The notes below the pieces were generated by a model. That model made no database searches. It saw nothing but the letters and a program-made list of their open reading frames with translations, and was not told the origin of the DNA. 22,878 nt of DNA from a virus. The translations under genes were made by a program, and so were the position numbers. Below are positions 2-18,062 of this stretch, in pieces. The stretch lies in the IMG/VR virus record IMGVR_UViG_3300005607_000302, one strand, 5' to 3'. Position 1 is the stretch's first letter. Every line of letters begins with the position of its first letter.

Positions 2-469
2 CAGGAGCGGAAGTTCCGCATCGAGGACGCGCTGAACGCGACGAAGGCCGCTGCTGACGAGGGCATCGTCCCCGGTGGTGGTATGGCGCTCTTCAACGCC
101 GTGGCGAAGGTCCGAGCATTGGTCAGCGGCGCGAAAGAGGTCGACCCCGAGGAGCTCCAGGGAGCGCAAGCGGTCTTCCGCGCTTGCCTCGGCCCGCTGC
201 GCCGGATCGTCGAGAACGCAGGCCAGAGCCCCGAGGTCGTCGTCAACGAGCTCGAGAAGATGAATAAGGCGGCGCCCACCGCCAATGACAACATGGGCTA
301 CAACGCTGCGACCGGCGAGTACACCGACCTCGTCGAGGCTGGCGTCATCGACCCCGTCAAGGTGACCCGCAGCGCGTTGAAGCACGCTGCCAGCGTGGCG
401 ACGACGTTCCTGTCGCTCGATGCTGTCATCTACGAAGAGCCGGCCAAGGAACAAGCGGGCGAGCAATGA
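2..469 (+). CDS. groEL: Chaperonin GroEL (Cpn60), C-terminal fragment; 5' end lies outside the window
   Basis: Frame 2 translates from base 2 as QERKFRIEDALNATKAAADEGIVPGGGMALFNAVAKV...SLDAVIYEEP. This matches the conserved GroEL equatorial C-terminal region, including the 'EGIVPGGG' motif. The stop is at 467-469. The tail 'EEPAKEQAGEQ' lacks the usual GGM repeats. Confidence 0.9.
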   Translation, partial: QERKFRIEDALNATKAAADEGIVPGGGMALFNAVAKVRALVSGAKEVDPEELQGAQAVFRACLGPLRRIVENAGQSPEVVVNELEKMNKAAPTANDNMGYNAATGEYTDLVEAGVIDPVKVTRSALKHAASVATTFLSLDAVIYEEPAKEQAGEQ

Positions 470-618: not shown

Positions 619-1021
619 CGTGGACATCCAAGTCGATGCCCTGATGATGGACGAGGCAGCACGGGTCGACTGGCACGCCCTGTCTGAACCCGAGGCCGCG
701 AGCTTCGGCTTGGCGATGGGACTCCTCCGCGATGTCAGTCACACCCACGAGCACCGACGGGTCGCCTGGGGGACAGCAACGGGAGGGGTCATCAGCATGT
801 CAGTGCTGGCCCTGGCGTGCATGGCCTTCGGCGCGGGCCCATGGTTTGCCCTCGGAGTGGTCATCGGCACCCAGGCCATTAGAGCCCTGGTGCTGTACCT
901 GAAGGCACACCGTGCCTCCCAGGATGTCCGCTTCGTGGAACAACAGGCCCTCGAGGTCATCAGGGAACTGGCAGCCGCCCATCCTGCCCAGCGGCAGGAT
1001 ACGTACGAAGGTGGCAGCTGA
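599..1021 (+). CDS. Hypothetical protein, 140 aa, probable membrane protein with two hydrophobic segments
   Basis: ORF with GC-rich third positions. Hydrophobic stretch is 'VISMSVLALACMAFGAGPWFALGVVIGTQAIRALVLYL'. No recognisable catalytic motif. Confidence 0.5.
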   Translation: MTAPTTDVDIQVDALMMDEAARVDWHALSEPEAASFGLAMGLLRDVSHTHEHRRVAWGTATGGVISMSVLALACMAFGAGPWFALGVVIGTQAIRALVLYLKAHRASQDVRFVEQQALEVIRELAAAHPAQRQDTYEGGS

Positions 1022-1532
1022 CGTCACCTACTACGTTTACGTCGATAGAACGCTGACTGGCGTCCCATTCTACGTAGGAAAAGGTAAGCTACGTCGCATC
1101 AATGATCTCAAGCGAAACCAAAAGCATGAGTGGGTAGTTGCAAAGCACGGCATTCAACGTACCGTTGAGTTCAAAAGCAACAATGCGAATGAAGTTGGTG
1201 ATGTCGAAAGCCAACTGATCCGGACGTACAAGACGTACGTTTACGAAAATCGTACCGTCAATCCACTCGCTTGCAATTTTACGCGAGGTGGCGACGGGGC
1301 TCCAGGGTTTCGAATGCCAGCGGCAGTTCGAGCTCAGATGAGCCATGATCGAAAAGGTCATCCTCCAACACACGGAAAATCTGTCGTCCAATGTGATCAT
1401 GATGGACATGTGATTGCTACGTACGTAACGATGAGCGCTGCAGCTCGTGCTGTCGGTGGACATCGTACTCGTATCCGAGCATGTCTTGACGGTAAGTTGT
1501 CAACATACCTGGGATTCACATGGAAAAGATAG
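1011..1532 (+). CDS. GIY-YIG homing endonuclease (I-TevI/Seg-like, with NUMOD-like and C-terminal HTH region). Start is uncertain: GTG 1011 is favoured, and the track ORF starts at 912
   Basis: N-terminal 'YYVYVDRTLTGVPFYVGKG' is the GIY-YIG motif. 'SHDRKGHPPTHGKS' is NUMOD3-like. The C-terminal 'AARAVGGHRTRIRACLDGKLSTYLGFTWK' is like the Seg/I-TevI DNA-binding tail. GC is markedly lower than in the flanks. It is a paralog of the gene at 16291-16797. Confidence 0.8.
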   Translation: MAADVTYYVYVDRTLTGVPFYVGKGKLRRINDLKRNQKHEWVVAKHGIQRTVEFKSNNANEVGDVESQLIRTYKTYVYENRTVNPLACNFTRGGDGAPGFRMPAAVRAQMSHDRKGHPPTHGKSVVQCDHDGHVIATYVTMSAAARAVGGHRTRIRACLDGKLSTYLGFTWKR

Positions 1533-1744
1533 TTCCAGGTGATCTTGTCGTTCGTCGTATTCGATGGCACGTCGATGCCAACCTGATGGGGCTAGTCATC
1601 GGTCGCGAGAACGGCTCGTGGCTGGTGCTGTGGACGACGGGCGACCAACGCAGCGAGTTCAAGTGGCACCTGCCCGATGCGTTGCAGGTCGTTGACCTCC
1701 GCGACGTGCCTGACCTCGCTGCCCGGGGATCGCTCCACCCATGA
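1520..1744 (+). CDS. Small protein, 74 aa, member of the 'PGD-V' family (N-terminal MEKIVPGDLVV)
   Basis: ORF overlaps the HEG stop. The N-terminal hydrophobic-PGDLVV motif is shared with at least eight other small ORFs in the window. GC3 is high. Confidence 0.55.
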   Translation: MEKIVPGDLVVRRIRWHVDANLMGLVIGRENGSWLVLWTTGDQRSEFKWHLPDALQVVDLRDVPDLAARGSLHP

Positions 1745-1998
1745 AGCCGTCCTTCCTGCCCGGAGACGCAGTGACAGTCGTACCCGTCCACTTGACGGGT
1801 TCGCTCCGGGTACCTGCCCTCGTCATCAGCGTCCAGCCCTCAGACCAGGTCCCTGACGCAGTCGAACGTGGGCTCGGCGAACTGCAACCCTTCAAGTACT
1901 GGGTGATGTCGTACGGTGACACGCCGTGGGGCATCAAGTTCTGGGGTCCCTTCCGAGCGTTTGAGCTGAAGTCGCAGTGGGAGGCCGATGGCGCGTGA
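1741..1998 (+). CDS. Small protein, 85 aa, PGD-V family (MKPSFLPGDAVTVV)
   Basis: ATGA overlap with the upstream stop. The family motif is present. Confidence 0.55.
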   Translation: MKPSFLPGDAVTVVPVHLTGSLRVPALVISVQPSDQVPDAVERGLGELQPFKYWVMSYGDTPWGIKFWGPFRAFELKSQWEADGA

Positions 1999-2335
1999 CT
2001 GGCTGCCCGGCGACCTCGTTGTCGTCCTTGAGTCGAGCCTGATCGCGCGCTGCGGCACCGAGATCGAGCAGTTCACCCGCGGCATGCAGCTGGGCCTCGT
2101 CATCCAACGCTCCCACCAGTGGACGGAACCGAACACCCTCCAGGAAGAGTCGCACATGTACTACATCGTCTTCTTCGGTAGCGTGGTCGGACCCCAACGC
2201 ATGTTCCCACACGAAAGAGACGACAGCGTCATGTCGCCGGGCTTCTACCGGGTGCCGGGCAACCGCATCATCCACCCTGACGAGGTCAACAACCCAGCAC
2301 GGTTGTTTGGGTCACACCGCGGCCCCGTAGAATAA
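1988..2335 (+). CDS. Small protein, 115 aa, PGD-V family (MARDWLPGDLVVVL)
   Basis: 11-nt overlap with the upstream gene. Family motif present. GC3 is high. Confidence 0.6.
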   Translation: MARDWLPGDLVVVLESSLIARCGTEIEQFTRGMQLGLVIQRSHQWTEPNTLQEESHMYYIVFFGSVVGPQRMFPHERDDSVMSPGFYRVPGNRIIHPDEVNNPARLFGSHRGPVE

Positions 2336-2617
2336 TCAGGTGCTGCCGGAGGTGGGCAACTGCCGGCTCTCCACGCGCCAATTCTTGGGCAGGTCTCGAG
2401 CATAGCACGAGAACATCGCGATGCGATCATTGGTCAGCAGGCGCAAGCGGATCCGGCCCCGGCTGACGCGCCAGACCTGGAGGACGAGGCCCACGTCTCC
2501 GGGTTCGACCCAGACTCCGTCGCCGCCTCGTTCCCAGTCGGATTCCCATGCACGCATCCGGTGGACTGCACGAACCATGTCGCCGGGGAAGACATCGTCA
2601 GTAGGCATCGATCGCAA
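2336..2617 (-). CDS. Small protein, 93 aa, PGD-V family (DDVFPGDMVRAV, with a second 'EPGDVGLVL')
   Basis: Minus-strand ORF, convergent with and abutting the gene at 1988-2335. Family motif present. Confidence 0.5.
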   Translation of the reverse strand: MRSMPTDDVFPGDMVRAVHRMRAWESDWERGGDGVWVEPGDVGLVLQVWRVSRGRIRLRLLTNDRIAMFSCYARDLPKNWRVESRQLPTSGST

Positions 2618-2831
2618 TCGCCCATTTGTTCTGGAATGTGCTTGATTCTACATTGAACATCCGCAGTTTGCAACGTTTGGCATCGAGCACCCAGACGTGA
2701 AGCTGTCGCCAGGGACCTGGGTACTCTTCTACCTCAACGTGGTAGACAAGGTAGAACCCATCGTCTGGGATGTCACGTCTGTAGATCAGGGTCCCGGGAG
2801 CGAGGTGCTTGAGCCACTCCTCACTCGTCAT
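2598..2831 (-). CDS. Small protein, 77 aa, a divergent member of the same family (LAPGTLIYRRD)
   Basis: Overlaps its neighbours by 20 nt and 11 nt within a minus-strand operon. Confidence 0.45.
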   Translation of the reverse strand: MTSEEWLKHLAPGTLIYRRDIPDDGFYLVYHVEVEEYPGPWRQLHVWVLDAKRCKLRMFNVESSTFQNKWAIAIDAY

Positions 2832-3027
2832 TGATCCTCTCGATCGCTTCGGACAACACGCCGCCGTAGCCCACGCAGACGTTCTTGAACTGCAACCTCG
2901 GCGTCATGACGAGCATGTCAACGCCGCCCTTAAACGGCACGACCGCGATCACCAAGCAGGGACCGCGGTCTTCGCCAATCAGGCCCGAGAACGTGATCAA
3001 GTCACCGGGCCTGACTTTCTTCTTCAC
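2821..3027 (-). CDS. Small protein, 68 aa, PGD-V family (MKKKVRPGDLITFSGLIGEDRG), KOW-like
   Basis: The start overlaps the stop of the lipoprotein gene. Family motif present. Confidence 0.5.
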   Translation of the reverse strand: MKKKVRPGDLITFSGLIGEDRGPCLVIAVVPFKGGVDMLVMTPRLQFKNVCVGYGGVLSEAIERINDE

Positions 3028-3683
3028 TTCTTCTTCGGAGTCGCCTTCTTCGGTGTGGGAGCCGGAGCCGGCGCGGCCTCCTCTTCCTTCGGAGCAACGG
3101 GCGGAGCCTTGATGACCAACGTTTGGGTGATGGTCGCCATCAGCTTCGCGTCGTCCTTGGTCATCGGAGCGATGGAGATGACGGCGTATCCCATGTTGTT
3201 GGCGACGTCGACGGTGACGAAGACTCCGACGAAGACCCCCTTGTCGGTGAGGACTTGGGTGATGCTCGCTGGACGGTCCTTGAAGTCGCCAGCCTGGCGC
3301 TGGACATCGGTGACGGTGACGCCGTCGGGGACCATGTTCTCGACCGCCAACGACATGATCCTGACAAACACCTCCGGCGGAACGTCGTTGAGGGGCTGCG
3401 CTGCGACCTGGAGACGGGCGGGCTTCGTGGTCGCCGTCTTCGGCCGCTCCACGGTGACTCCCGATTCGCTGTCATCGCTGACTGTCCAGTCGCCGGGAAC
3501 GGTGATCGACCACGCTTGGTGATCGATGACCCTGGTCTCCGGGACCGGTGCCGGAGCGACTGCGGCCGGCGGCCGAACCATCGCGACGATCTCCGGCTTC
3601 GGGGGGACGGGTTGGGGCGGCGGCGCTGATGCGCCACACGCCGTGAGTGCGAGCGCCAGTGCGGCGACTGCGAAACGCTTCAT
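3024..3683 (-). CDS. Lipoprotein, 219 aa: signal peptide with lipobox LTAC-G, a Pro-rich linker, a globular domain and a Lys-rich C-terminal tail
   Basis: N-terminus is MKRFAVAALALALTACGASAPPPQP, a type II signal peptide with a lipobox. A GGAGGT RBS lies 7 nt upstream of the ATG. Pro/Ala-rich linkers are present. Confidence 0.65.
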   Translation of the reverse strand: MKRFAVAALALALTACGASAPPPQPVPPKPEIVAMVRPPAAVAPAPVPETRVIDHQAWSITVPGDWTVSDDSESGVTVERPKTATTKPARLQVAAQPLNDVPPEVFVRIMSLAVENMVPDGVTVTDVQRQAGDFKDRPASITQVLTDKGVFVGVFVTVDVANNMGYAVISIAPMTKDDAKLMATITQTLVIKAPPVAPKEEEAAPAPAPTPKKATPKKK

Positions 3684-5204: not shown

Positions 5205-5908
5205 TGACGCTCCCTCTCGTGTCGATGTTGCTCCCCTGCCGGGGACGCTACGAGGGCACCAGACAATCCCTCGAGTCGTTGAAGCTGGCTACTGACCCGT
5301 CCCGGATCGAGGTTCTCGTGCGGTGCGACGATGACGACCCGCAGACAGCAGAGATCATGAAGGAGGAGTGGCCCTTCGTGACCAAGACCTTCGTCGGACC
5401 CAGGGGCAACGGCTATGCAGACCTGCATCACATGTACAACCAGCTGGCGGCTGAAGCCGCTGGGACGTTCCTGTTCCTGTGGAACAACGATGCCGTCATC
5501 CAGACACCCGGTTGGGACGACAAGCTGGTTCCGTTTGACGATGGGAAGCTACGCTACTTCCACGTCAGAGTGACGCCCGATGACCAGATCCTCAGCTTCC
5601 CGATCGTCCACAGGTCGTACCAGGACTGCCTCGGCCGCTACAGCGCCTGGGCCCACAACGACTCCTACGTCCATGCGGTGCTCCAACCGTTCTTCAGCCA
5701 GGGAGTCTACCAGGACGTTGACATCCACGTCCACCACCTGATCAACGACTACCTCGCCGCTGGAGATGCTCCTTCCGTCGAAGGGCGGTCGAAGTGGAGC
5801 GTGACGCGTCCCGTGCGGCGCACCGCCGAGTACCAGCAGGAGCTGCAGCGTGACCGGGAGAAGGTCGCTCAGTGGTTGGCTCGTTCAGCACATCGCAGTG
5901 AAGCCTGA
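5204..5908 (+). CDS. Putative GT2-like glycosyltransferase, 234 aa. The start is placed at ATG 5204, which overlaps the upstream TGA by 1 nt (the track ORF starts at 5075)
   Basis: 'VSMLLPCRGRYEG...IEVLVRCDDDD' resembles the GT2 N-terminal 'VSVIIPTYNR...EIIVVDDGS' pattern. 'LWNNDAVI' is a DxD-like segment. Confidence 0.5.
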   Translation: MTLPLVSMLLPCRGRYEGTRQSLESLKLATDPSRIEVLVRCDDDDPQTAEIMKEEWPFVTKTFVGPRGNGYADLHHMYNQLAAEAAGTFLFLWNNDAVIQTPGWDDKLVPFDDGKLRYFHVRVTPDDQILSFPIVHRSYQDCLGRYSAWAHNDSYVHAVLQPFFSQGVYQDVDIHVHHLINDYLAAGDAPSVEGRSKWSVTRPVRRTAEYQQELQRDREKVAQWLARSAHRSEA

Positions 5909-6098
5909 GCCACCAGTCGGGTAGGATCACCAGCCTGTTGTTGGTGAGAAGCAACACTTCGCTGGAGCTGGCAAAGACGCCGCCCGTCGAGATAACCAAC
6001 GCCTGGGTACCTTCGACGAGGATCAACTCCATGTTCCACTCCTTGTATGGGTGGGTGAGCTTGATCAGGTCACCGGGCAACAGGTCGGGGGCAGCCAC
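5742..6098 (-). CDS. Small protein, PGD-V family (MAAPDLLPGDLIKLTHPYKEW), 118-aa ORF. The C-terminal roughly 50 aa are low-complexity and antisense to the 3' end of the GT gene
   Basis: GTG start at 6098 carries the family motif. The 3' 166 nt overlap the convergent gene at 5204-5908. Confidence 0.45.
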   Translation of the reverse strand: MAAPDLLPGDLIKLTHPYKEWNMELILVEGTQALVISTGGVFASSSEVLLLTNNRLVILPDWWLRLHCDVLNEPTTERPSPGHAAAPAGTRRCAARDASRSTSTALRRKEHLQRRGSR

Positions 6099-6142: not shown

Positions 6143-6550
6143 ATGGAGCTGACTCTAGAGGGACCGACCACTGCACACGCTTCGGGGAACTTGACAGTCG
6201 AGCTCCCGCGGTACATGATCCCACTCGAACCCGAGGAGATGCATGACTCCCGGACGGCTCCCAACAAGGCTCAGCTTGCGCTGGCAGCGGGTCGCCATCC
6301 CAACGGGAACATCATGTTTATCACCGGGGACGGTACCATCCACGAGATCGACTGCCAGAAGCAGGGCGACCTCCCGAAGGGTGCAGTCTACCCGATCGAC
6401 AACGGCCTGACCATCGTCATCTTGCACCCGGGCCACAAGCCCTTCGAGATCGCCACGGATTGGGCGTTGGAGAACTCCAGCACCCTCCTGAGCGCAGGGG
6501 TCATGGTTGCTACCACAAAAGGGCGCCGGATCACCTATGTAGATGAGTGA
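6143..6550 (+). CDS. Hypothetical protein, 135 aa
   Basis: Strong GC3 bias in this frame compared with the antisense ORF at 6155-6559. No motif recognised. Confidence 0.55.
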   Translation: MELTLEGPTTAHASGNLTVELPRYMIPLEPEEMHDSRTAPNKAQLALAAGRHPNGNIMFITGDGTIHEIDCQKQGDLPKGAVYPIDNGLTIVILHPGHKPFEIATDWALENSSTLLSAGVMVATTKGRRITYVDE

Positions 6551-6834
6551 AGACCACACTACGCGAGCTGCGCCAAGAGATCCGGAGGTTGCTCCGCGAG
6601 TTCGGTGTCGACGATGACAACCGGTATTCAGCAGGCTTCTTCATGGACGGAGGCGGTGCCGGCTTTGGCGGAGAGACCAACCGCAGCCGCGAGAACAGCG
6701 TGATGAACCCACCCCCAGGATTGGGTGGACCCGAAGACGAAGAAGGAGACAATGGCGAAGAACAAGAGAAGGGGCAACCAGGCGTACGAGTCTACGACCA
6801 CAGCGGAGGTCAGGGAGGACCGCCTGGAGTTTGA
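6547..6834 (+). CDS. Hypothetical protein: an N-terminal basic helix 'LRELRQEIRRLLREFG' followed by a Gly/Pro/Asp-rich low-complexity tail. Its 3' end overlaps infA by about 80 nt
   Basis: GTG start overlaps the upstream TGA (GTGA). The N-terminal motif resembles that of the ORF at 16776/16803 ('LRKLLREVG'). Confidence 0.35.
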   Translation: MKTTLRELRQEIRRLLREFGVDDDNRYSAGFFMDGGGAGFGGETNRSRENSVMNPPPGLGGPEDEEGDNGEEQEKGQPGVRVYDHSGGQGGPPGV

Positions 6835-7140: not shown

Positions 7141-7856
7141 GCGCGGCGAGCTGACCGTGCAGCCGGGTGAGCCGGCTTGATGAGGTTGTGGAGGACCTCA
7201 GCGTCCTTGCTACCGAAGACCTGCGACGTCTGTCCGGTCGTCGTGTCGAGCAGGACGAGGTAGCCACCCGGCGTCATCGTCAGCGGAGCGGTGCACTTCT
7301 TCAGCCAGTCGTACTGGGCTCCTGCCTCGGTCTGCTGAGCATCGAACCACGCGTCCAGCACGAAATTGCTGACAGTGACGAGCTGCGTGCCAGCGTGGAC
7401 GTTGTAGGAGTCGTTCTCCACCGGGTCACATGCTTCGTAGGCGACCATGTGGGTGGCGTCCTTCTGTGCCCAGAGGTTGCACCCCTTGTCGACGAAGAAC
7501 TCGATGACCTCGTGTGAGAGGCAGGCGCTGACGGACAGCGAACCCTGGAGGATTGTGCCGTTGTTGCTCAGGATCGTCTGGGCAAAGACGCGGCCGTAGA
7601 TGTTCCCGCCCGGGTCCTCGGTGTGGTAGCCCAGAGCACCCGCCACGTCGGCGTTGTCCAGGATGTAGATGGGATAGCAGTCCGACGGGATGGTACCACC
7701 CTTGGCGACGAAAACGCTGTCCATGAACTTCTTGTTCCAAGCGGGCGCGACTTGCCAATAGAGTTGGTTCTTCACTGCTTCGAACATGAGTTGCACGTCA
7801 GAATCAGAAACAACCGTTGAGTCATTGATTACGGCATAACGAGTCATCTTAGTCAT
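7134..7856 (-). CDS. Hypothetical protein, 240 aa. The 5' third is AT-richer than the rest
   Basis: Long ORF with good coding statistics. No catalytic motif recognised. Convergent with the small peptide gene. Confidence 0.55.
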   Translation of the reverse strand: MTKMTRYAVINDSTVVSDSDVQLMFEAVKNQLYWQVAPAWNKKFMDSVFVAKGGTIPSDCYPIYILDNADVAGALGYHTEDPGGNIYGRVFAQTILSNNGTILQGSLSVSACLSHEVIEFFVDKGCNLWAQKDATHMVAYEACDPVENDSYNVHAGTQLVTVSNFVLDAWFDAQQTEAGAQYDWLKKCTAPLTMTPGGYLVLLDTTTGQTSQVFGSKDAEVLHNLIKPAHPAARSARRAH

Positions 7857-7873
7857 GACCTTATGTAGGTCAT
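7855..7873. promoter_or_regulatory. Palindrome ATGACCT-tatgt-AGGTCAT overlapping the start codon of the gene at 7134-7856, in the 33-nt divergent gap before the HNH gene
   Basis: Perfect 7-bp arms with a 5-nt spacer, seen in the sequence. Candidate operator or translational hairpin. Confidence 0.25.
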
Positions 7874-7889
7874 TGAGTACGATTTCGGT

Positions 7890-8408
7890 GTGAGGAAGAT
7901 CGAGAAAATTGCGGCTGCTTGCGTATCATGTCAAACAACGATGTGGATACGTCCACGTCAAATCGGACATCGAAAATACTGTTCACGTAAATGCAAGAAC
8001 AAAGCCATGAGCGTACCTGGCGGGATCAACCATTGGCTCACTCCCAAGACCTGCGAGATCTGTCAACAATCCTTCATGGCCAAGGACTGCCGCGGACGTT
8101 TCTGCAAGACATGCGTCCCTGACGGAACGTGGTTGAGCATCGCTCAACACTACGGGTTGTCGAAAGCTGCGTATGAGTTGTTGGTCGAAGCGCAAGGCAA
8201 CCGTTGCAAGATCTGTGGCGTGCAACCCACCGGCAGTCATCACTTCAAGCGCCTCCACGTTGACCACAACCACATCACTGGCGAGGTCCGTGGCCTCCTC
8301 TGCCCGAAGTGCAACTCGACGGTTGGGTTCGTCGAGACTCACGATAACATCGACGAAGTCGTTGCCTACCTCAAGCGTGAATCCCGACCGCTTCGCTTGG
8401 TAGGATGA
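7890..8408 (+). CDS. HNH endonuclease of the Endonuclease VII family, with an N-terminal Cys4 zinc finger
   Basis: 'HVDHNHITGEVRGLLCPKCN' matches the Endo VII HNH signature. N-terminal CxxC...CxxxC is present. Lower GC than the flanks. It is a paralog of the gene at 13879-14298. Confidence 0.8.
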   Translation: MRKIEKIAAACVSCQTTMWIRPRQIGHRKYCSRKCKNKAMSVPGGINHWLTPKTCEICQQSFMAKDCRGRFCKTCVPDGTWLSIAQHYGLSKAAYELLVEAQGNRCKICGVQPTGSHHFKRLHVDHNHITGEVRGLLCPKCNSTVGFVETHDNIDEVVAYLKRESRPLRLVG

Positions 8409-8412
8409 ACGT

Positions 8413-8586
8413 ATGAGCCGGGTCCGTATCTTCGCCCTGTGGGCGCTCGCTGCAGTTACGGGGGTCACGTGCTACCGCTTGTTCAGCCAACACCGGACTG
8501 AAGAGATCGCAGTCGTTGTCTGGATGCTCCTGATGGTGGTCTGGTTCCACCACGAGGACTGGCTCGGCGATAGTTACAGAGCATGA
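8413..8586 (+). CDS. Small membrane protein, 57 aa, two hydrophobic segments
   Basis: MSRVRIFALWALAAVTGVTCYRLF...VVVWMLLMVVWFHHEDW. Its stop TGA overlaps the ATG of the next gene (ATGA). Confidence 0.4.
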   Translation: MSRVRIFALWALAAVTGVTCYRLFSQHRTEEIAVVVWMLLMVVWFHHEDWLGDSYRA

Positions 8587-8771
8587 AGAAGCTCTTCACG
8601 GCGTTCGTCGTAGCGATTACCCTGGTCGGGTGCTTGTCAACGGCGAACATCAAGCCGCTGCCGCCCGGTGCGAAAGCCTGTGGCGGTCCTGCGGACTGCC
8701 CCGTCGGGTACTACTGCGGGTTCCCTGGCGTTGACACCTACGCGCAGTGCCTACCCTACCGTCGCTACTGA
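8583..8771 (+). CDS. Small Cys-rich lipoprotein, 62 aa (lipobox LVGC, then four more Cys)
   Basis: Signal peptide MKKLFTAFVVAITLVGC. The mature part is 'ACGGPADCPVGYYCGF...QC'. Confidence 0.55.
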   Translation: MKKLFTAFVVAITLVGCLSTANIKPLPPGAKACGGPADCPVGYYCGFPGVDTYAQCLPYRRY

Positions 8772-8780
8772 GAGAACAAC

Positions 8781-8996
8781 ATGAACACCGCACGTCTTAT
8801 GGGCGCGATCTTCAGCCTGGTCCTCTGCCTGAGCATGACCGCCCTCGCTGTCTACAGCCTCTTCTGGACGAAGGTCCCGCTGCTGATGCCCGTTGCCACG
8901 GGCGGCATCGCTGCCATCGCCGGTGCCATGGTCGTCATGAACGACTGGCCCAAGGTGTGGAAGCCGCTGCTCACTGGCCAGACGCCTCCGCAGTGA
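8781..8996 (+). CDS. Small membrane protein, 71 aa, two TM helices
   Basis: Hydrophobic segments are 'MGAIFSLVLCLSMTALAVYSLFW' and 'GGIAAIAGAMVVM'. A GAGAGAA purine tract lies upstream. Confidence 0.5.
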   Translation: MNTARLMGAIFSLVLCLSMTALAVYSLFWTKVPLLMPVATGGIAAIAGAMVVMNDWPKVWKPLLTGQTPPQ

Positions 8997-10005
8997 GAAG
9001 CTGAAGTTGTGAGAGAACTGCATCGCGTGGTTTCGTGGTCTCACCCTCGATCCACAAGGGGGCTTGTTGTCCGACTTTTGCTGCGCGGCGAGCTTGTGAA
9101 ACATCACCTAGCTTGAACAACGACATCCAAGCCAGGTCCCAATAGAAATTGGCGATGTCAGGGCGTTGATGCATCAACGGTTTGACGTACTCCCACGTTT
9201 CCTGGTACTTTCCTTGCAACATCAGAGATCGTGCCGCCCTGAGTGCCGCCATGATCTCAAGGTTCGTTCCCAGGCGCGCGACTTGATTGAAGTATGCGAA
9301 CGCCTCGGCGAATTGTTGCCTGACGAACAACTCGTCGCCCAGGTGAAACTTCAAAACGACCTGGTCTTCACCTGGTTTGCAACCATCTCTCTCCCAACGT
9401 TGCAACATGCGTAGGTTCCGATCGTTATGTGCATTACGTCCCCCTCCCGACAAGTGCCTGACTCGAACTTGATCAGAGACTTGGTGTGGACACGTGTGGA
9501 TGTCACCGTGGCAACACGCAATCGACTCGTGGATGGGGTTGTTCCAACGCCACCCATGATCACGGTGAATGAAACGGGGGTGCTTCAGCGTTTGAATGCA
9601 CCGACCCTCACACCACGTATAGTCGTACCACATCCAGATGCTGAAACACGGTTCGCCTTCTCGACGTTTCTCAGCCTCTTCTACGATGTTGAGTACGTGT
9701 TGCCACCCAGCATCTAGAGTGTCGTCAGTGTGGAGCCACAGTCTCCAGGGTCGGGTCGCAAGGGCATATGCCTCGTTGTGAACCTCGGCAAAACTCCGGA
9801 GCAGCCCATCTTCGTGGATCAGATCGGGTCGCAGCGAGACGATGTCAGCGCCCGCTTCCTTGGCAACCTCGGGCGATCCATCGTCAGACATCGTATCAAC
9901 GACGACAATCTCTCTGACCCAAGGGCGAGCCTCGGTCACCAACCGCCTGACGTTGTCACGGTCGTTCCGACAGGGGATGATCAGCGAGACGTCTGCTCGT
10001 GACAC
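8971..10005 (-). CDS. Glycosyltransferase family 2 domain fused to a C-terminal TPR-like helical domain, 344 aa
   Basis: 'SLIIPCRNDRDN...VVVDTMSDDGSPE...LHTDDTL' gives the GT2 signature with a DxD motif. The C-terminal half has TPR-like amphipathic repeats. It is a paralog of the gene at 11115-12131. Confidence 0.75.
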   Translation of the reverse strand: MSRADVSLIIPCRNDRDNVRRLVTEARPWVREIVVVDTMSDDGSPEVAKEAGADIVSLRPDLIHEDGLLRSFAEVHNEAYALATRPWRLWLHTDDTLDAGWQHVLNIVEEAEKRREGEPCFSIWMWYDYTWCEGRCIQTLKHPRFIHRDHGWRWNNPIHESIACCHGDIHTCPHQVSDQVRVRHLSGGGRNAHNDRNLRMLQRWERDGCKPGEDQVVLKFHLGDELFVRQQFAEAFAYFNQVARLGTNLEIMAALRAARSLMLQGKYQETWEYVKPLMHQRPDIANFYWDLAWMSLFKLGDVSQARRAAKVGQQAPLWIEGETTKPRDAVLSQLQLLTAEASGQ

Positions 10006-10157
10006 GTTTCTTCCTTGTCCAACCGGCGGCGGGCACGCCGGACACGTTTCTTGGCGTGCCGTTTGCCTTTGCGGTGGGTCTCGTTCATCCGGTCACGATC
10101 CCAGGCATCTGATGTCTTGGCTTTCGCCTTCTTCTTGGCGCGGTCAGCTTGACTCAT
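9981..10157 (-). CDS. Small highly basic protein, 58 aa (Lys/Arg-rich). Its ATG overlaps the upstream TGA (ATGA)
   Basis: MSQADRAKKKAKAKTSDAWDRDRMNETHRKGKRHAKKRVRRARRRLDKEE... It is translationally coupled to the gene at 10154-10537. The track lists a GTG-extended version at 10181. Confidence 0.4.
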   Translation of the reverse strand: MSQADRAKKKAKAKTSDAWDRDRMNETHRKGKRHAKKRVRRARRRLDKEETCHEQTSR

Positions 10158-10537
10158 CGTAGGTGAGCGCAGTCTGGACACGGCTGCATCGGTCCATCGG
10201 GGTGATCGGGCGTCCAGAAGCTATGTGAAGCGAACCCGCAGGAACACAGCTTGCCCGAGCTGTGACAGCGTTTGCAGACGACGAAGGGACGATCGTCAGG
10301 CGTGTCCTTCCTGGGACGGTGCATCCGGTGGAGGACGTTCCACTCCCAGTGCCACTTGACGTTGCCCTTGAACCCGTAGACCATCAGCAGGTAGTGGCTG
10401 CCAATGACACGGTTGCTGTCACGGCCGTCGCGGTACTGGTCCTCGCGGGTCAGCCAGACGAGACACGGCTTGCTAACGTAGAGAGGATCGTGTTTGATGA
10501 ACGGGTTGCGGATCGCGAGCAGGACCTTGTGTGACAT
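10154..10537 (-). CDS. Hypothetical Cys/His-rich protein, 127 aa. An alternative GTG start lies at 10549
   Basis: High GC3. C-terminal 'CKRCHSSGKLCSCGF...CPDC' suggests metal binding. Confidence 0.55.
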   Translation of the reverse strand: MSHKVLLAIRNPFIKHDPLYVSKPCLVWLTREDQYRDGRDSNRVIGSHYLLMVYGFKGNVKWHWEWNVLHRMHRPRKDTPDDRPFVVCKRCHSSGKLCSCGFASHSFWTPDHPDGPMQPCPDCAHLR

Positions 10538-10540
10538 GGC

Positions 10541-10570
10541 GCCTGCCACTGATTTTACTCAATGGCAGGC
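10541..10570 (-). other. Perfect 8-bp inverted repeat (GCCTGCCA N14 TGGCAGGC) immediately 5' of the ATG at 10537
   Basis: Seen directly in the sequence. It lies in the 42-nt gap between two minus-strand genes, and no U-tract follows it. Confidence 0.3.
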
Positions 10571-10591
10571 AACGTTCATTACGTTAGAACG

Positions 10592-11047
10592 TTAGTTGCG
10601 AATGAAGGCCCAAATCTTGGCAGTCGGACTGCCAGATGGAAAGGCCATCAGAGTTGTGCTAGGTCCAGGCGGATAAGCATCTCCATCATCAGAAGGACGA
10701 GTGAAGAGGAAACGTCCGACAAGGTTCTCAGAAGGTACGCCAGTTCCCATCGAACCTGCGATAGCTCCCATTACGAAGAAACCAGCCGATGAGGGAGTTC
10801 CACCCCCAGATGTCGGGCTGCTAGCGAAACCCACAGTCTTGTCGTAGACTTCGGCATAGACCGCAGCGACGTAGCCTCCCATTCCGAGTTCGCCACCATC
10901 GACAGCAAAAGCTGTCGTGGGTGAATCGGGTGTCAGCTCAATGCTAACAACCGTAGTGTAGTTGATGCTGTCAAGAAAGTTCACCGTGTCAAGCGGTGCG
11001 CCGTCAGGCTGCCAAGAAAGACTGCCAGTGATTGAAAGTTGATCCAT
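10592..11047 (-). CDS. Hypothetical protein, 151 aa, Gly/Ser/Thr-rich. The region is AT-richer than the flanks
   Basis: ORF with an AAGGAGA RBS 6 nt upstream. Composition differs from its neighbours. Confidence 0.55.
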   Translation of the reverse strand: MDQLSITGSLSWQPDGAPLDTVNFLDSINYTTVVSIELTPDSPTTAFAVDGGELGMGGYVAAVYAEVYDKTVGFASSPTSGGGTPSSAGFFVMGAIAGSMGTGVPSENLVGRFLFTRPSDDGDAYPPGPSTTLMAFPSGSPTAKIWAFIRN

Positions 11048-11114
11048 TCAGTGTCTCCTTGTGAGGACACCCAGAACGACGGTTCTGAACGTTGATCCTC
11101 ACCACTTCATGGTA

Positions 11115-12131
11115 TCAAATCAAAGGCTTGTGTACACTTTTCAGTCGTTCAATGACGTGATCACGAAACTTCGTAGTTTCGCCTTCAATCTGCGTGGTTG
11201 CTTTCGTTGATGCATTCATCATGTGGGCCGCCATTGGCAGGTCGCCAACCAACGTGCATATGTACGCAGCATCCCAATAGAAGTCCGCGATGTGTGGGGC
11301 GGCATGGTAGAACGGTCGCAAGTACGCCTGCTGTTCTCGGAGCTTTCCCTGGAACATCAGGCATCGACCCGCGTTCAAGACACATGACACTTGCAACGGG
11401 TTTGCTGTCCCCGCCGCACGATTGAAGTACTCGAATGCTACTTCGTACTGTTGTCGAGTGCAGTACTCGGCACCCAAGTAGAAGTACAGGGAATCAGGAT
11501 CTTCTTTGGGCCCGTCTTCAGCTTCCCAATGCAACAGGATCCGAAGGTTACGATCGCTGGTGTTGCGTGAACTCTGCGACAGGTGGATGACTCGCAACGT
11601 CTCGTCCACAATCACGGGTTCGTCGCCCTGTCCACAGACCAAGCGTTCGTGGACGGGCTTCATCCAACGCCAGAAATCATCTTTGTGCGTCAAGCGAGTT
11701 CGGAGGAGCGAGACGAGACATTTGCTCCTGTCTTCCGACCATGCATAGTCATACCAGAGGTTCACGCTGAGCCCCCACTGGTTCTGCAACCGAGCCTCGG
11801 AAGCTCTGCGAACCAGCGTTGGCAACAACGACCAGTCGCTCAACGTGTCATCGGTGTCCAACCAGAGTTGCCACGGTTTCGTAGCGAGCTTGTATGACTC
11901 GTTCCGTGCCAGAGCAAAGCTCTTGATGATCCCGTCTTCTCGTAGTAGACCTGGACGTTCGACAACAACGTCAGCACCTGCTGACTTGGCAGCTCCGGCT
12001 GAACCGTCGGTCGAACCCGTGTCAACGATGACAATCTCGTCGACCCAAGGTCGAGCCTCTCTCACCAACCGCACCAGGTTCTCACGATCGTCGCGGTTGA
12101 TGATGCAGAGTGACAGTCCCTCTTGGACCAT
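11115..12131 (-). CDS. Glycosyltransferase family 2 domain plus a C-terminal TPR-like domain, 338 aa; paralog of the gene at 8971-10005
   Basis: 'SLCIINRDDREN...IVIVDTGSTDGS...LDTDDTL'. Colinear similarity with the other GT2-TPR gene runs over the full length. The start TGATG overlaps the stop of the phosphatase gene. Confidence 0.75.
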   Translation of the reverse strand: MVQEGLSLCIINRDDRENLVRLVREARPWVDEIVIVDTGSTDGSAGAAKSAGADVVVERPGLLREDGIIKSFALARNESYKLATKPWQLWLDTDDTLSDWSLLPTLVRRASEARLQNQWGLSVNLWYDYAWSEDRSKCLVSLLRTRLTHKDDFWRWMKPVHERLVCGQGDEPVIVDETLRVIHLSQSSRNTSDRNLRILLHWEAEDGPKEDPDSLYFYLGAEYCTRQQYEVAFEYFNRAAGTANPLQVSCVLNAGRCLMFQGKLREQQAYLRPFYHAAPHIADFYWDAAYICTLVGDLPMAAHMMNASTKATTQIEGETTKFRDHVIERLKSVHKPLI

Positions 12132-13437: not shown

Positions 13438-13733
13438 GTTGTCTCTCCCATGGCGATCACGTGGTGGTGACCCTTGTTGACCCACACCAGCTCGAACGTA
13501 GTCCCGGGAGGCAGTGGGTTGGACGGTGCGAACGGAAACTCGAGGACGACATCGGTGTTGTTCTGGCCCGACATCGCCTTGATGTGGACGGGCCACGGGT
13601 GAGCACGCTGGCTCGGCGCCAGCAGCTGGAGGTGATCGCCCAAACGTGGCCTGTGATCGTGCTGGTGGAAGTGGTGCGACGACCACTGCAGCTTTGCGGA
13701 CACGATTGCTGGGACGGGGAGGGCGACTGCCAT
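13434..13733 (-). CDS. Hypothetical His-rich protein, 99 aa (SSHHFHQHDH...KGHHHV)
   Basis: ATG at 13733. High GC3. It is the first gene of a long leftward operon. Confidence 0.55.
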   Translation of the reverse strand: MAVALPVPAIVSAKLQWSSHHFHQHDHRPRLGDHLQLLAPSQRAHPWPVHIKAMSGQNNTDVVLEFPFAPSNPLPPGTTFELVWVNKGHHHVIAMGETT

Positions 13734-13741
13734 GGTTGTAC

Positions 13742-13774
13742 GTATACTCCCATACACGAGTGTATACTGCCATA
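13742..13774. promoter_or_regulatory. Tandem 13-bp direct repeat GTATACTCCCATA / GTATACTGCCATA, 20-bp period, in the AT-rich divergent intergenic region. Candidate operator or promoter element
   Basis: Seen in the sequence. Each repeat contains the palindrome GTATAC. It sits between the divergent starts at 13733 (-) and the HNH gene (+). Confidence 0.3.
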
Positions 13775-13878
13775 GTATGCTTGAACGCCCATGGCATGCA
13801 CTTGCTTTTGAGCAGTACGTCACTCACAATTGTTCACTCAGCGAAACGTTACGTTGCTTGCATGATGCGGGTTTCAAG

Positions 13879-14298
13879 ATGACTCGCACTCCACTTCGAC
13901 AATTCTTGTTGAATCGCGGTGTGCTTCGCCCCAACACTCATGGTGGGTGGATGTGTGTGAAACGAAAACCGCGACAATGTGAGTACTGTCATAACGAGTA
14001 CGTGCCTGTTTCACGTACGCAACGTTGGTGTAAGACCTGTTGTCCTACTCGAAAAGATGCAGGTAGAATGTCAACATATGGGCTAACAATCTCAGCCTTC
14101 AACGAGATGATGCTTCGCTCTAATGGACGATGCGAAATTTGCGGGGAATGTTTTTCTGATGTTCCTTGTATCGACCATGATCATGTCACCAAGCGCGTAA
14201 GAGGTTTGCTCTGCACACAGTGCAACTTGCGATTGGGACATGTTGAAGTAGGACCAGACTGGTATGTCAAAGCAGCCGCGTATCTCCAACGAGCGTGA
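13879..14298 (+). CDS. HNH endonuclease, Endonuclease VII family, with an N-terminal zinc finger. Start is uncertain; the track ORF begins at 13732
   Basis: 'IDHDHVTKRVRGLLCTQCNLRLG' is the Endo VII HNH signature. Upstream Cys pairs are CEYC and CKTCC. Low-GC patch. Confidence 0.75.
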   Translation: MTRTPLRQFLLNRGVLRPNTHGGWMCVKRKPRQCEYCHNEYVPVSRTQRWCKTCCPTRKDAGRMSTYGLTISAFNEMMLRSNGRCEICGECFSDVPCIDHDHVTKRVRGLLCTQCNLRLGHVEVGPDWYVKAAAYLQRA

Positions 14299-16290: not shown

Positions 16291-16797
16291 GTGACTTGGC
16301 ACGTTTACGTTGACTGGACGCTTGAGGAGACGCCTCGACCATTTTACGTGGGAAAGGGCACTCCAGATCGTCTTCGAAAGAAGCAACGTAACATCGTTCA
16401 CTCTCGCATCGCGAAAAAGTACGGCATGCGACGCGAGGTTGTGTTGACAACTGATGTTGAGCGTCAAGCGCTTGATGTCGAAGTTCAACTCATTCAAGAA
16501 CATCGCACGTTTGTGGACGGCGGTACTGGTTGGTGGGGCGCCAATCTTACGTTGGGTGGCGAGGGCGTTTCGGGCACACACATCAACAAGGGTCGAACGT
16601 TCAGCGCCGAACATCGTCAAAAACTCAGTCAAGCTCGTCGTGGCAGGGCGCCTTGGAACAAAGGACAGCAAAACGTCTACACGGATGAAGCCCTTGCCAA
16701 GATCAAGAAAGCACGTTCACGTCAAGTCACATCAACGGAAACGAAGCAGAAGATTGCTGACGGTGTCCGTCGTTCATGGAGCAAACGATGCGACTGA
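16291..16797 (+). CDS. GIY-YIG homing endonuclease (I-TevI/Seg-like, with a NUMOD3-like motif)
   Basis: 'WHVYVDWTLEETPRPFYVGKG' is the GIY-YIG motif. 'SAEHRQKLSQARRGRAPWNKG' is NUMOD-like. Low GC. Paralog of the gene at 1011-1532. Coordinates are taken from the ORF track. Confidence 0.85.
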   Translation: MTWHVYVDWTLEETPRPFYVGKGTPDRLRKKQRNIVHSRIAKKYGMRREVVLTTDVERQALDVEVQLIQEHRTFVDGGTGWWGANLTLGGEGVSGTHINKGRTFSAEHRQKLSQARRGRAPWNKGQQNVYTDEALAKIKKARSRQVTSTETKQKIADGVRRSWSKRCD

Positions 16798-16802
16798 CAA
16801 TG

Positions 16803-17117
16803 GGACAGCTTCGAAAACTTCTGCGTGAAGTAGGGGCAAATAATTCGTGGCCGGGCCAGCCGTATGGTCGGAGCGTGACATCGCCCGACATCAACTCACG
16901 CGAACAGCTGGGCGCGATCTCGGCGAAGGCTATCGACACCGTGGCAGACCCGGACGGTCTGCCCGATCACCTGCTCGAACCCCAGGTGGACCCCGAGGAC
17001 TGCTTTGGTCCCGTTCCACCCGATGCAGAGCCCCCGTACGTGGGGCAAGATCCCTTCGCTCGGGACGTCAGCCCGAACCCGACTGGCACCATCAAGCGCG
17101 GTCCTACGCGCGTCTGA
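16803..17117 (+). CDS. Hypothetical protein (about 104 aa from ATG 16803; the track ORF starts at 16776). The N-terminal 'QLRKLLREVG' helix is followed by a Pro/Asp-rich tail
   Basis: It follows the GIY-YIG stop directly. The N-terminal motif resembles that of the ORF at 6547. Confidence 0.45.
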   Translation, partial: GQLRKLLREVGANNSWPGQPYGRSVTSPDINSREQLGAISAKAIDTVADPDGLPDHLLEPQVDPEDCFGPVPPDAEPPYVGQDPFARDVSPNPTGTIKRGPTRV

Positions 17118-17451
17118 CCTCGGCGTCGAGGCGGTCCCGTTCCCAAGTCCGTTGCCGCTCTTCCCAGACGGGATCAGCGATGCGACGGATCCATCCAAAC
17201 TTCCCTTCGTGCCAGGCGAGTCGTGCAGAGGCTCCGAGGAGCAGGAAGCGCCAGTGACCGACGAATGCATTCCTGGGCTCTGGAACGTACTCTTTGCCGA
17301 TGACAGTCCAGGGAGTCTCGCTCTCCCAGAAGACCGGGTTGGGGTCGGTGAACAGCGGCTTGTCTCCCTCGACCTTCTCGCGGACGAAGAAGAACATCAT
17401 GCCCGGGTAGATGTCCTCGTGGTTCAGCTGCTCACGTTCGGGGAAGTTCAT
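17104..17451 (-). CDS. Hypothetical protein, 115 aa
   Basis: Strong GC3 bias. Convergent with the gene at 16803-17117 (14-nt overlap). Confidence 0.55.
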   Translation of the reverse strand: MNFPEREQLNHEDIYPGMMFFFVREKVEGDKPLFTDPNPVFWESETPWTVIGKEYVPEPRNAFVGHWRFLLLGASARLAWHEGKFGWIRRIADPVWEERQRTWERDRLDAEVRRA

Positions 17452-17779
17452 CGTCCGTCACGTCCTCCATGCCCTGCTGGCGTGCGAACTCACGGATGAA
17501 GTTATCAAAAGCGAGGCGGATGACGCCGAGGTCGACCAGCGTCACCTTGCGCAGCTCGTGGTCTGACCACGAGAGCGTGTTGATGGCGGTGCCCAATGGG
17601 CGCTGGAAGTCAAATGCGGGTCGCAGCATCAGCCGCGTGTGTTCGGTGGACGGGTTGCCCGGTGTGATCGGGGGACTGGTCTCGATCTTCTTGGACATCA
17701 CCTGGTAGATGATGTGGTTCTTCAGGGTCGTATGCTCGGTCTGCTTGCCCGTCCACACGACGAGGTCGCCCTCATTCAC
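17432..17779 (-). CDS. Small protein, about 116 aa, with a KOW-like 'EGDLVVWTGKQ' N-terminus. The GTG start at 17779 follows a GAGAGG RBS (the track ORF extends to 17875)
   Basis: The GTG overlaps the upstream TGA (GTGAATGA). The motif relates it to the PGD-V family. Confidence 0.4.
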   Translation of the reverse strand: MNEGDLVVWTGKQTEHTTLKNHIIYQVMSKKIETSPPITPGNPSTEHTRLMLRPAFDFQRPLGTAINTLSWSDHELRKVTLVDLGVIRLAFDNFIREFARQQGMEDVTDDELPRT

Positions 17780-18062
17780 GGTCCATGCCTCTCGAGATAG
17801 CGATGTCCCTGATGATGTTGCCGAGTTGCTGGTAAGCTGTGCCGAGTTGGACAAGGTCAGGCGCCTCCACTTCATGCCATTGTACCCTCTTGTCCCGCAA
17901 GACGCTGGGTCCTGTCACCGTCCACACGGGTTCGAGCCAGATGTAGGCACCCGCTGCTTTCTTGACCCGCCACAGGACACCCTCTCCAGCGCCATTGAAT
18001 CGTGCCATGGTGACTATGTCCCCGGGCTGGTAGGGGTTTTCTCGAGGGCGGTTGGTGGGCAC
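17772..18062 (-). CDS. Small protein, 96 aa, PGD-V family (PYQPGDIVTMARFNGAGEGVLWRV)
   Basis: Family motif present. It lies immediately downstream of the MetAP gene. Confidence 0.5.
   Translation of the reverse strand: MPTNRPRENPYQPGDIVTMARFNGAGEGVLWRVKKAAGAYIWLEPVWTVTGPSVLRDKRVQWHEVEAPDLVQLGTAYQQLGNIIRDIAISRGMDRE

Follow-up and report, generated by a model that had tools for sequence, protein, structure and literature searches.

Ten small open reading frames, p1 to p10, in the 22,878-nucleotide stretch of viral DNA analysed here (the window) are genuine, conserved protein-coding genes. On the reading that we favour, with a probability of about one half, at least eight of these ten phage genes (p1–p7 and p10) would be old duplications of a single stand-alone SH3-like barrel, the fold class of KOW, Tudor and NdhS, and would act as non-enzymatic binding modules. 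The set amounts to about one gene in six on the contig, and none of its members fits a curated family.

Array layout and the N-terminal motif

An initial annotation had described an array of six tightly overlapping ORFs with four further copies elsewhere, and all ten are present at its coordinates, with overlaps of 4–11 nt. On the plus strand, p1 (1520–1744, 74 aa, motif IVPGDLVV) overlaps p2 (1741–1998, 85 aa, FLPGDAVTV) by 4 nt, and p2 overlaps p3 (1988–2335, 115 aa, WLPGDLVVV) by 11 nt. The stop codons of p3 (2333–2335) and p4 (2336–2338) abut with zero bases between them, and the minus strand carries p4 (2336–2608, 90 aa, VFPGDMVRA), p5 (2598–2831, 77 aa, relaxed motif LAPGTLIY) and p6 (2821–3027, 68 aa, VRPGDLITF), the last two overlapping by 11 nt. 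In the public gene call, p4 begins with the ATG at 2608; the initial annotation had used a TTG at 2617 (93 aa). The start of p6 is a GTG at 3027, the sole ATG, GTG or TTG in its frame between the upstream stop and that position, and p6 overlaps a co-oriented upstream lipoprotein gene (3024–3683) by 4 nt. The other four genes are also on the minus strand: p7 (5742–6098, 118 aa with a conserved core of about 85 aa at 5844–6098, LLPGDLIKL), p8 (17432–17779, 115 aa, GTG start, relaxed motif NEGDLVVW at residues 2–9), p9 (17772–18062, 96 aa, YQPGDIVTM) and p10 (19178–19432, 84 aa, PRPGDLVLL at residues 16–24). The public gene calls lack p7, whose final 167 nt overlap a glycosyltransferase gene. A promoter and terminator scan of the array gave nothing above background.

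The motif was said to be carried by every copy, which holds for most of them; p5 has PGTLI in place of PGD, p8 has EGDLV at residues 3–7, and I substitutes for V in p6 and p7. Distant p5 orthologues in L041 and L042 carry PGDLV. In its strict form, PGD[LIVMA][IV], the motif occurs seven times in the 58 called proteins of the contig (9282 aa), each time at residues 6–18 of a protein of 68–115 aa and nowhere else in the contig. Over 5000 shuffles of the proteins the mean number of N-terminal matches was 0.013 and the maximum was 1, against the 7 observed, so that the motif is clearly enriched over the chance frequency of PGD. Nor is it an effect of GC content, since it is absent from 20 other MetAP-bearing viral loci, several of them at 63% GC, and is present in four copies in L043, a clade member at 45% GC. 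The motif is specific to this clade.

The codons of the motif vary from copy to copy, and no DNA-level repeat was found among the copies except for two short stretches of coding sequence that match between p3 and p4; in these two genes the codons of the PGDLV and LGLVIQ blocks are nearly identical. It is thus the protein sequence that is conserved, and a conserved DNA element beneath the motif was rejected. A similar lead-in is present in two unrelated folds of the same window, the OB-fold protein IF-1 (LLPGDRVTI) and MetAP (KEGDIVNI), and the motif alone is thus no proof of common descent.

Conservation beside the phage chaperonin gene

The DNA comes from an uncultivated huge phage, probably T4-like and with a bacterial host. 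This assignment to a phage of bacteria is made because the window has GTG and TTG starts, gene overlaps of 4–11 nt and a lipoprotein with a lipobox, because its IMG/VR relatives measure 72–369 kb, and because L041 gives a weak match to the Gp23 capsid protein. A eukaryotic giant virus, as the MVP, SET, TANGO2 and MetAP genes might suggest, was rejected on the obligatory GTG start of p6, the short overlaps, the lipobox lipoprotein and the weak match to T4 Gp23. Among 50,697 phage records, megablast with the whole window returned nothing, and tblastn searches with Cpn60 and with p4 brought up no cultured relative.

We call p1–p10 real genes because syntenic orthologues exist for all ten and retain the motif, and because dN/dS across the ten lies between 0.13 and 0.58, well below 1. 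Orthologues of p2 occur in L006, L008, P0009, P0015 and L041, where the motif reads TGDLV (dN/dS 0.28–0.29); those of p5 in L006 and L008 as well as L041 and L042 (0.46–0.50); and those of p6 in L006 and L044 (5160–5408), there too after a lipoprotein gene. For p3 there are nine homologues at 71–86% identity (0.13–0.18), with a highly conserved C-terminal segment, SPGFYRVPGNRIIHPDE..NPARLFG; a search of viral and metagenome contigs with the p3 alignment returned just two relatives that were already known. The orthologues of p7 (L006 and P0046; 0.16) stop about 33 aa earlier. Those of p8 are in L019, L010, L009 and L011 (0.27–0.37), those of p9 in L019, L010 and P0077 (0.18–0.24), and those of p10 in L010 and L019 (0.13–0.58). 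The most widespread subfamily is p4, with about 45 cluster representatives (50% identity) in 1.84 billion proteins and the consensus PGDxxxAxxxMRAWExDxxRGxxGxW..G..ALV.Q.W.VG.Q.R.RVL....FSC....NW.V.

The initial annotation had proposed a check of synteny and copy number in related genomes, and this check bears out the array. The loci L006, L008, L041, L042, L043 and L044 repeat the order Cpn60 ... p1 p2 p3, with p4 p5 (p6) on the other strand, and p4 adjoins Cpn60 in L041–L044. In the more distant loci with this gene order p4 identity is merely 36–42%. Further arrays exist in the clade, with seven copies in L044 at 138–2233 and seven strict copies in L011. The array paralogues are old, separate orthologous lineages, kept at a fixed position beside the phage Cpn60 gene and under purifying selection. 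This history bears on an earlier suggestion that the copies form a diversified anti-defence or host-takeover arsenal, each neutralising a different host immunity protein. The many small tandem paralogues, whose fixed scaffold carries variable loops and which lie in a non-structural region of the genome, and the additional arrays of the clade would suit such an arsenal. However, counter-defence genes typically show presence/absence turnover, whereas the six array members persist as stable lineages at fixed positions despite the divergence of p4, and their dN/dS values are low; the fit is poor, and we consider this explanation very unlikely.

The neighbourhood is rich in translation and proteostasis genes, namely Cpn60, IF-1 and MetAP. 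In the window and in L041–L042, p1–p3 follow Cpn60 on its own strand, and expression of the array may proceed from two convergent operons, one of them starting with the phage chaperonin gene. The conserved one-strand order could also mean that p1–p3 assist the phage chaperonin as accessory factors, whether as substitutes for a co-chaperonin or as substrate adaptors, and no Cpn10/GroES match was obtained for any neighbouring ORF, including one of about 90 aa just upstream of Cpn60. Such a role is, in our estimation, highly improbable.

Similarity beyond the motif and the predicted fold

With the motif removed, leave-one-out HMM tests gave p≤0.02 for seven of the ten members, while p7, p8 and p9 failed; the real score of p10 was reached by 3 of 500 shuffles and that of p9 by 147 of 500, which is not significant. 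Profile comparison with hhalign linked p4 to p7 at 95% probability over 74 columns, p5 to p6 at 86% (49 columns), p2 to p6 at 83%, p1 to p4 at 71% (48 columns), p4 to p10 at 60% (39 columns) and p6 to p7 at 50%; the link of p3 to p4 reached just 43% (41 columns). Besides the motif, a second block, (G/A)LVI, and a third, (V/L)xW, are visible across members. The claim of one paralogous family conserved outside its core therefore stands for p1, p2, p4, p5, p6, p7 and p10, whose similarity beyond PGD is significant. Membership of p3 is weakly supported at the sequence level. p8 and p9, tied to the main family by the motif alone and with no profile link to p1–p7 past it, are not shown to belong to it. 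The blastp match between these two covers the C-terminal 55 aa only, and they have a C-terminal helix in common, in p9 DLVQLG...NIIRDIAISRGM.

A profile of the family alignment, to which p1 is the closest member, found 59 small proteins at E≤1e-3 among 1.84 billion; three long proteins with repeats, P0026, P0066 and P0080, which the search of representatives had returned, were rejected as artefacts of summed repeats. A word-indexed search with a crude alignment of the ten paralogues found 20 proteins, all of them orthologues of p1–p4 and p10. Two other ORFs of the window, both with a relaxed form of the motif, were scored against the family HMM: that at 17104–17451 (IYPGMMFFF) had its score reached by 15 of 500 shuffles, a weak support, and was left out of the set, and that at 18822–19187 (AIPGELL) was rejected at 170 of 500.

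It could be argued that these are several unrelated small proteins, each with the generic PGD-h-V lead-in to a strand that is common in small barrels. When each ORF was searched with phmmer against all fetched ORFs, only orthologues were returned, with zero cross-matches among the ten paralogues, and the failures of p7, p8 and p9 in the leave-one-out test, the lack of links for p8 and p9 and the lead-in of IF-1 point the same way. However, profile links of 39–74 columns join p1, p2, p4, p5, p6, p7 and p10, the GLVI and VLW blocks are common to members, and the motif is strictly N-terminal and confined to the clade. In addition, an alignment mixing the paralogues led to a confident structural model, whereas the shallow alignment of p3 on its own did not. 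Unrelated origins are thus quite improbable for the set, although they may still hold for p8 and p9 alone.

That confident model, the sole usable one among the ten, is of p1 and has a pLDDT of 79.4, although the alignment behind it already mixes the paralogues. Five antiparallel strands (residues 9–14, 17–30, 33–39, 45–50 and 55–57) form a small barrel, strand 5 being preceded by a short 3-10 turn, in an SH3-like arrangement in which PGD, at residues 6–8, is the turn right before strand 1. The model supports a small beta-barrel of the SH3/KOW/Tudor type for p1, with PGD predicted to lead into strand 1. The small barrel of the initial annotation is thus upheld for p1; the AlphaFold model of p3, made from a shallow alignment of nine close homologues, had a pLDDT of 41.8 and was excluded from fold claims, and p2, p4, p5, p6, p7 and p10 are tied to the fold of p1 only through the profile links of 50–95% probability. 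Foldseek with the p1 model gave target-normalised TM values of 0.78–0.80 to NdhS and Ssl0352, with the same ranking. The KOW domains of NusG/Spt5 and the KOW-containing eL14 and eL27 were also among the best structural matches, and the best neighbours were all binding modules.

The resemblance to KOW in fold is not matched in sequence. Searches of the ten proteins with Pfam, NCBIfam and PHROG models gave no KOW match and no S1, Sm or other nucleic-acid-binding match at E≤1, and 39 relatives of p4 had no Pfam match, KOW included, at the same threshold; the proposed membership of the KOW family is accordingly not supported. The only SH3 match was that of SH3_4 to p10 (E=0.096, over 23 residues), which at 12.9 bits falls below the cut-off of 24.1. 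The best PHROGs v4 match for any of the ten had an E-value of only 0.23, no enzyme family matched these proteins of 68–115 aa, and a PDB sequence search found no match. Of the ten cores, six have an acidic pI of 4.9–6.2, and p4 and p10 are basic (9.3). This mostly acidic or neutral composition argues mildly against nucleic-acid binding as a general property.

These results also bear on whether the proteins are KOW- or Tudor-like binders of nucleic acid, ribosomes or RNA polymerase that retune host transcription and translation alongside the phage IF-1 and MetAP. The structural matches to NusG/Spt5, eL14 and eL27, the nearby Cpn60, IF-1 and MetAP genes and the basic p4 and p10 are consistent with this. 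Against it, the nucleic-acid-binding models are silent, most cores are acidic, NdhS, which heads the structural matches, is a subunit that binds protein, and the gene neighbourhood is positional evidence only. We consider such a role possible, if unlikely.

Proposed function and relation to known systems

If the barrel family is real, the h-P-G-D-h-V-h segment would be a structural element and not an active site. The p1 model suggests that Pro-Gly-Asp makes the turn and that the alternating hydrophobic residues belong to strand 1; the (G/A)LVI block would supply strand 2 and the (V/L)xW block strand 3. The paralogues differ from one another in the segment that joins strand 1 to strand 2, a loop of about 4 to 30 residues, and in their C-terminal tails. 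Inside one paralogue these loops and tails are strongly conserved, as in the MRAWExDxxRG and FSC....NW segments of p4, and therefore each paralogue is likely to be tied to a fixed partner of its own. Binding is favoured over catalysis because the proteins are small, no enzyme family matches them and their structural neighbours are all binding modules. Judging from fold and size, they may act during infection on particular proteins of the host or the phage, as adaptors or as inhibitors.

The closest known fold is that of NdhS/Ssl0352, the SH3-like subunit S of cyanobacterial NDH-1 (PDB 6a7k, 2jz2 and 3c4s), to which there is no Pfam or PDB sequence match. NdhS is a single-copy subunit of a photosynthetic complex, whereas the phage set is an expanded family in an unrelated context. 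The KOW domains of NusG/Spt5/RfaH, eL14 and eL27 (PF00467) are similar in fold, but their model, a 27-residue motif with a conserved glycine, finds neither the ten proteins nor the 39 p4 relatives, and a KOW domain normally sits within a larger protein while the phage proteins stand alone. With the Tudor/Agenet/PWWP royal family, whose domains are eukaryotic readers of chromatin and RNA, there is similarity of fold only and no sequence match. Barrels of the same general fold, 57–75 aa long, are found in cultured phages at TM 0.6–0.78 (Gordonia phage BritBrat, A0A166XZJ8; the T4 MotB.1 region, P39415), although Foldseek against the BFVD phage models gave none at E≤1e-3; to our knowledge, ten or more copies have not been reported in these phages. 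Bacillus phage G has about 35 copies of a zinc ribbon, a lineage-specific expansion in a jumbo phage (PMC7824862). There too one small binding domain has been multiplied in a very large genome, though the fold and the lineage differ.

A bolder reading, which we hold to be a long shot, is that the clade has made stand-alone SH3-like modules into a toolkit of its own, ten of them in a 33-kb contig, each locked to a different component of host or phage protein synthesis and folding (Cpn60, IF-1, MetAP or the ribosome), which together would re-wire proteostasis in the course of infection. If true, this would be a previously undescribed form of host takeover by means of a multiplied adaptor fold.

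The favoured reading of an old SH3-like family is a useful annotation rather than a surprise, as small phage proteins commonly have this fold. With the fold named and most copies placed in one old family, a set of "hypothetical proteins" becomes a defined target. New domain families could be registered for the p4-like and p1-like subfamilies, which could then serve as markers of an uncultivated clade of huge phages that encode Cpn60. Should binding partners come to light, the set would illustrate the use that a very large phage makes of a multiplied binding scaffold.

The motif and its genes

The ten small open reading frames (ORFs) proposed in the initial annotation were all found in place: p1–p3 (plus strand) and p4–p6 (minus strand) in a convergent array at 1520–3027, and p7 (5742–6098), p8 (17432–17779), p9 (17772–18062) and p10 (19178–19432), all on the minus strand. 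PGD was not present in every copy as had been stated, p5 having PGT and p8 EGD, and the probable start of p4 is the ATG at 2608 instead of the one first chosen. The convergent genes p3 and p4 meet end to end (2333–2338), with no intergenic nucleotides and no terminator-like hairpin at the junction. ORF p7, absent from public gene calls, has a C-terminal extension that runs 167 nt (5742–5908) into the 3' end of the neighbouring, convergent glycosyltransferase gene; because its orthologues in the related locus L006 and in database protein P0046 stop approximately 33 aa sooner, the extension in the window apparently reflects loss of the stop codon.

Among the contig's 58 called proteins the strict motif PGD[LIVMA][IV] is found seven times, always at residues 6–18 of a protein of 68–115 aa and nowhere else. 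Shuffled proteins gave a mean of 0.013 N-terminal motifs (maximum 1 in 5000 trials), and 20 other viral loci sharing only the aminopeptidase contained no motif ORFs, even at 63% GC; the concern that PGD is simply frequent in GC-rich proteomes was therefore not borne out. A clade member of 45% GC still carries four motif ORFs, the codons under the motif differ, and no DNA repeat family was found. Together, these sequence comparisons show that the motif is real, protein-level and lineage-specific. In the 72-kb and 369-kb relatives all ten ORFs have same-position orthologues that keep the motif, with dN/dS values of 0.13–0.58, which identifies them as real genes.

Relatedness and fold

Single-sequence searches showed no connection among the ten. 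In a leave-one-group-out HMM test with the motif columns removed, the real score was reached by 0 of 500 shuffles for p1, 3 for p10, 4 for p3, 6 for p5, 8 for p4 and 9 each for p2 and p6, while p7, p8 and p9 did not rise above nearly all of theirs. Profile–profile comparison, with homologues from large protein collections added beforehand, linked p4 to p7 (95% over 74 columns), p5 to p6 (86%), p2 to p6 (83%), p1 to p4 (71% over 48 columns), p4 to p10 (60%), p6 to p7 (50%) and p3 to p4 (43%). The idea of one paralogous family with similarity past the motif thus holds for p1, p2, p4–p6 and p10 by HMM and profile links and for p7 by its profile link to p4; it holds weakly for p3, but not for p8 and p9, which are joined to each other by a C-terminal helix (DLVxLG...N-IR-A-GM) and to the other ORFs by the motif only. 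The common pattern is PGD-h-V-h (h, hydrophobic), a variable-length loop, often with Trp (RIRWHVD in p1, RMRAWESD in p4, YKEWNME in p7), (G/A)LVI, (V/L)xW and two further strands. Two small second-cluster ORFs on the minus strand, 17104–17451 and 18822–19187, start with the relaxed motifs IYPGMMFFF and AIPGELL; they were not counted as members, since their scores against the family HMM are matched by 15 and 170 of 500 shuffles, respectively.

The predicted structure of p1, from an 18-row alignment of p1 orthologues and other paralogues, is all-beta with five strands (pLDDT 79.4). PGD (residues 6–8) lies immediately ahead of strand 1, and in the model the motif leads into the first strand of a small barrel. 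The blocks most conserved among paralogues fall on strands 1–3; the parts that vary between paralogues are the strand 1–2 loop and the tails, both strongly conserved inside each paralogue. Across the p4 family, G9, W21 and W77 never vary and D10, A14, G28, R54, S67 and N76 almost never do. A prediction for p3 with nine close homologues (pLDDT 41.8) was too low for any fold reading. The p1 model comes closest in structure to NdhS and KOW/Tudor-type domains, and in a comparison with predicted viral structures many uncharacterised phage proteins of 57–75 aa resemble it, none at E<=1e-3. The KOW/SH3-like fold class originally suggested is supported for p1 by the model and for most others by homology; membership of the KOW sequence family is not, as neither the ten proteins nor 39 p4 relatives matched Pfam, nor did they match NCBIfam, PHROG or PDB sequences.

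Distribution and the virus

A search of 1.84 billion cluster representatives with a mixed-alignment profile returned 59 proteins at E<=1e-3: approximately 45 p4-like, approximately 10 p1-like, one p7-like and one p9-like. Three of the 59 are repeat-protein artefacts. Four distant p4 homologues (36–42% identity) were placed on their own contigs, L041–L044, and in all four an IF-1 gene lies near p4. Cpn60 is present in L041–L043, separated from the convergent p4 block by a few small genes; L044 ends before Cpn60 could be seen. Orthologues of p1, p2 and p3 are recognisable in L041 and L042. On these distant contigs the p5 orthologue has a canonical PGDLV, p2 reads TGDLV and p3 PGTLRV. L044 holds seven tandem copies of a subtype, "PGxxV...G-hIAh...VTVLW", at 138–2233, and the related locus L011 has seven strict copies and several weaker HMM matches in 20.7 kb, with an array at 7772–11594. 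The suggested survey of copy number and synteny in relatives thus found orthologues in the same position, and one to seven motif ORFs per fetched clade locus (10–21 kb). The picture from sequence is of an old family that has expanded repeatedly, its individual members afterwards being kept as distinct, conserved genes.

The window is a reversed segment (bases 12–22889) of the 32.9-kb metagenome contig k141_609427 (ENA ERZ27279671), and near-identical pieces are found in JGI 3300027706. The contig encodes Cpn60/GroEL, IF-1, methionine aminopeptidase (MetAP), a Band-7 protein, a major-vault-protein-like protein, glycosyltransferases, a metallophosphatase, several homing endonucleases and many small ORFs. 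Neighbouring genes share 4–11 nt, GTG is the sole possible start codon of p6, and upstream of p6 lies a lipobox lipoprotein gene; these features favour a phage of bacteria over a giant virus of eukaryotes. The IMG/VR relatives measure 72, 216 and 369 kb, a weak match to the T4 Gp23 capsid protein lies nearby in a relative further removed, and no relative was found among cultured phages.

Several other genes deserve mention. The major-vault-protein-like gene (21533–22723, minus strand; Pfam MVP_shoulder E=2.3e-30, Vault_3 E=2.9e-7) adjoins a 651-aa Band_7/SPFH gene (19504–21459, minus strand); a vault-protein homologue is unusual for a bacteriophage. Two paralogous proteins of approximately 340 aa with weak Glycos_transf_2 matches (8971–10005 and 11115–12131, minus strand) are alike in their N- and C-terminal sequences and lie approximately 1.1 kb apart, with two small ORFs between. 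A GIY-YIG-like homing endonuclease ORF with weak NUMOD1 matches (912–1532, plus strand) lies between Cpn60 and p1, where public gene calls have an antisense ORF (1089–1463, minus strand); a second copy is at 16291–16797, and several Endonuclease_7/HNH genes are at 7890–8408 and 13732–14298. The part of the contig upstream of the window (L004 1222–3915) carries SET-domain, ADP-ribosylglycohydrolase and TANGO2-domain genes, followed by AAA ATPase and Cpn60; the order ADP-ribosylglycohydrolase, TANGO2, AAA, Cpn60 recurs in L041 and L042.

Gene setting and possible role

ORFs p1–p3 are co-oriented with and downstream of Cpn60, and IF-1 and MetAP genes are nearby, a gene position compatible with some connection to proteostasis or translation. 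The window contains the Cpn60/GroEL C-terminus (83–469, plus strand; full gene L004 6830–8482). No recognisable Cpn10 accompanies this Cpn60; a candidate for a highly divergent co-chaperonin is the conserved ORF of approximately 90 aa just upstream of it (L004 6153–6437; L041 13364–13627), which has no Pfam match. Another paralogous family of small proteins, marked by the N-terminal motif 'M(R/K)xTLxELRxxh', is found at 6547–6834 (absent from public gene calls) and 16776–17117, both on the plus strand, and has two copies per genome also in L041, L043 and L044. In the window, L043 and L044 one of the copies immediately precedes IF-1 and overlaps its 5' end; in L041 two small genes lie between IF-1 and the nearest upstream copy.

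Each paralogue is probably a binding module without catalytic activity and with one fixed partner of its own, which could be a host or a phage protein. The cores are mostly acidic or neutral, p4 and p10 alone being basic, a mild argument for partners that are proteins rather than nucleic acids in general.

The closest genomic parallel is Bacillus phage G, in which a small zinc ribbon has expanded (PMC7824862), and our search of predicted viral structures indicates that small SH3-like proteins without assigned function are common in phages. Given these parallels and the nearest structures, the ORF set is a new, unannotated family of an already familiar type, and what is notable about it is its copy number and conserved synteny within a clade of uncultivated huge phages.
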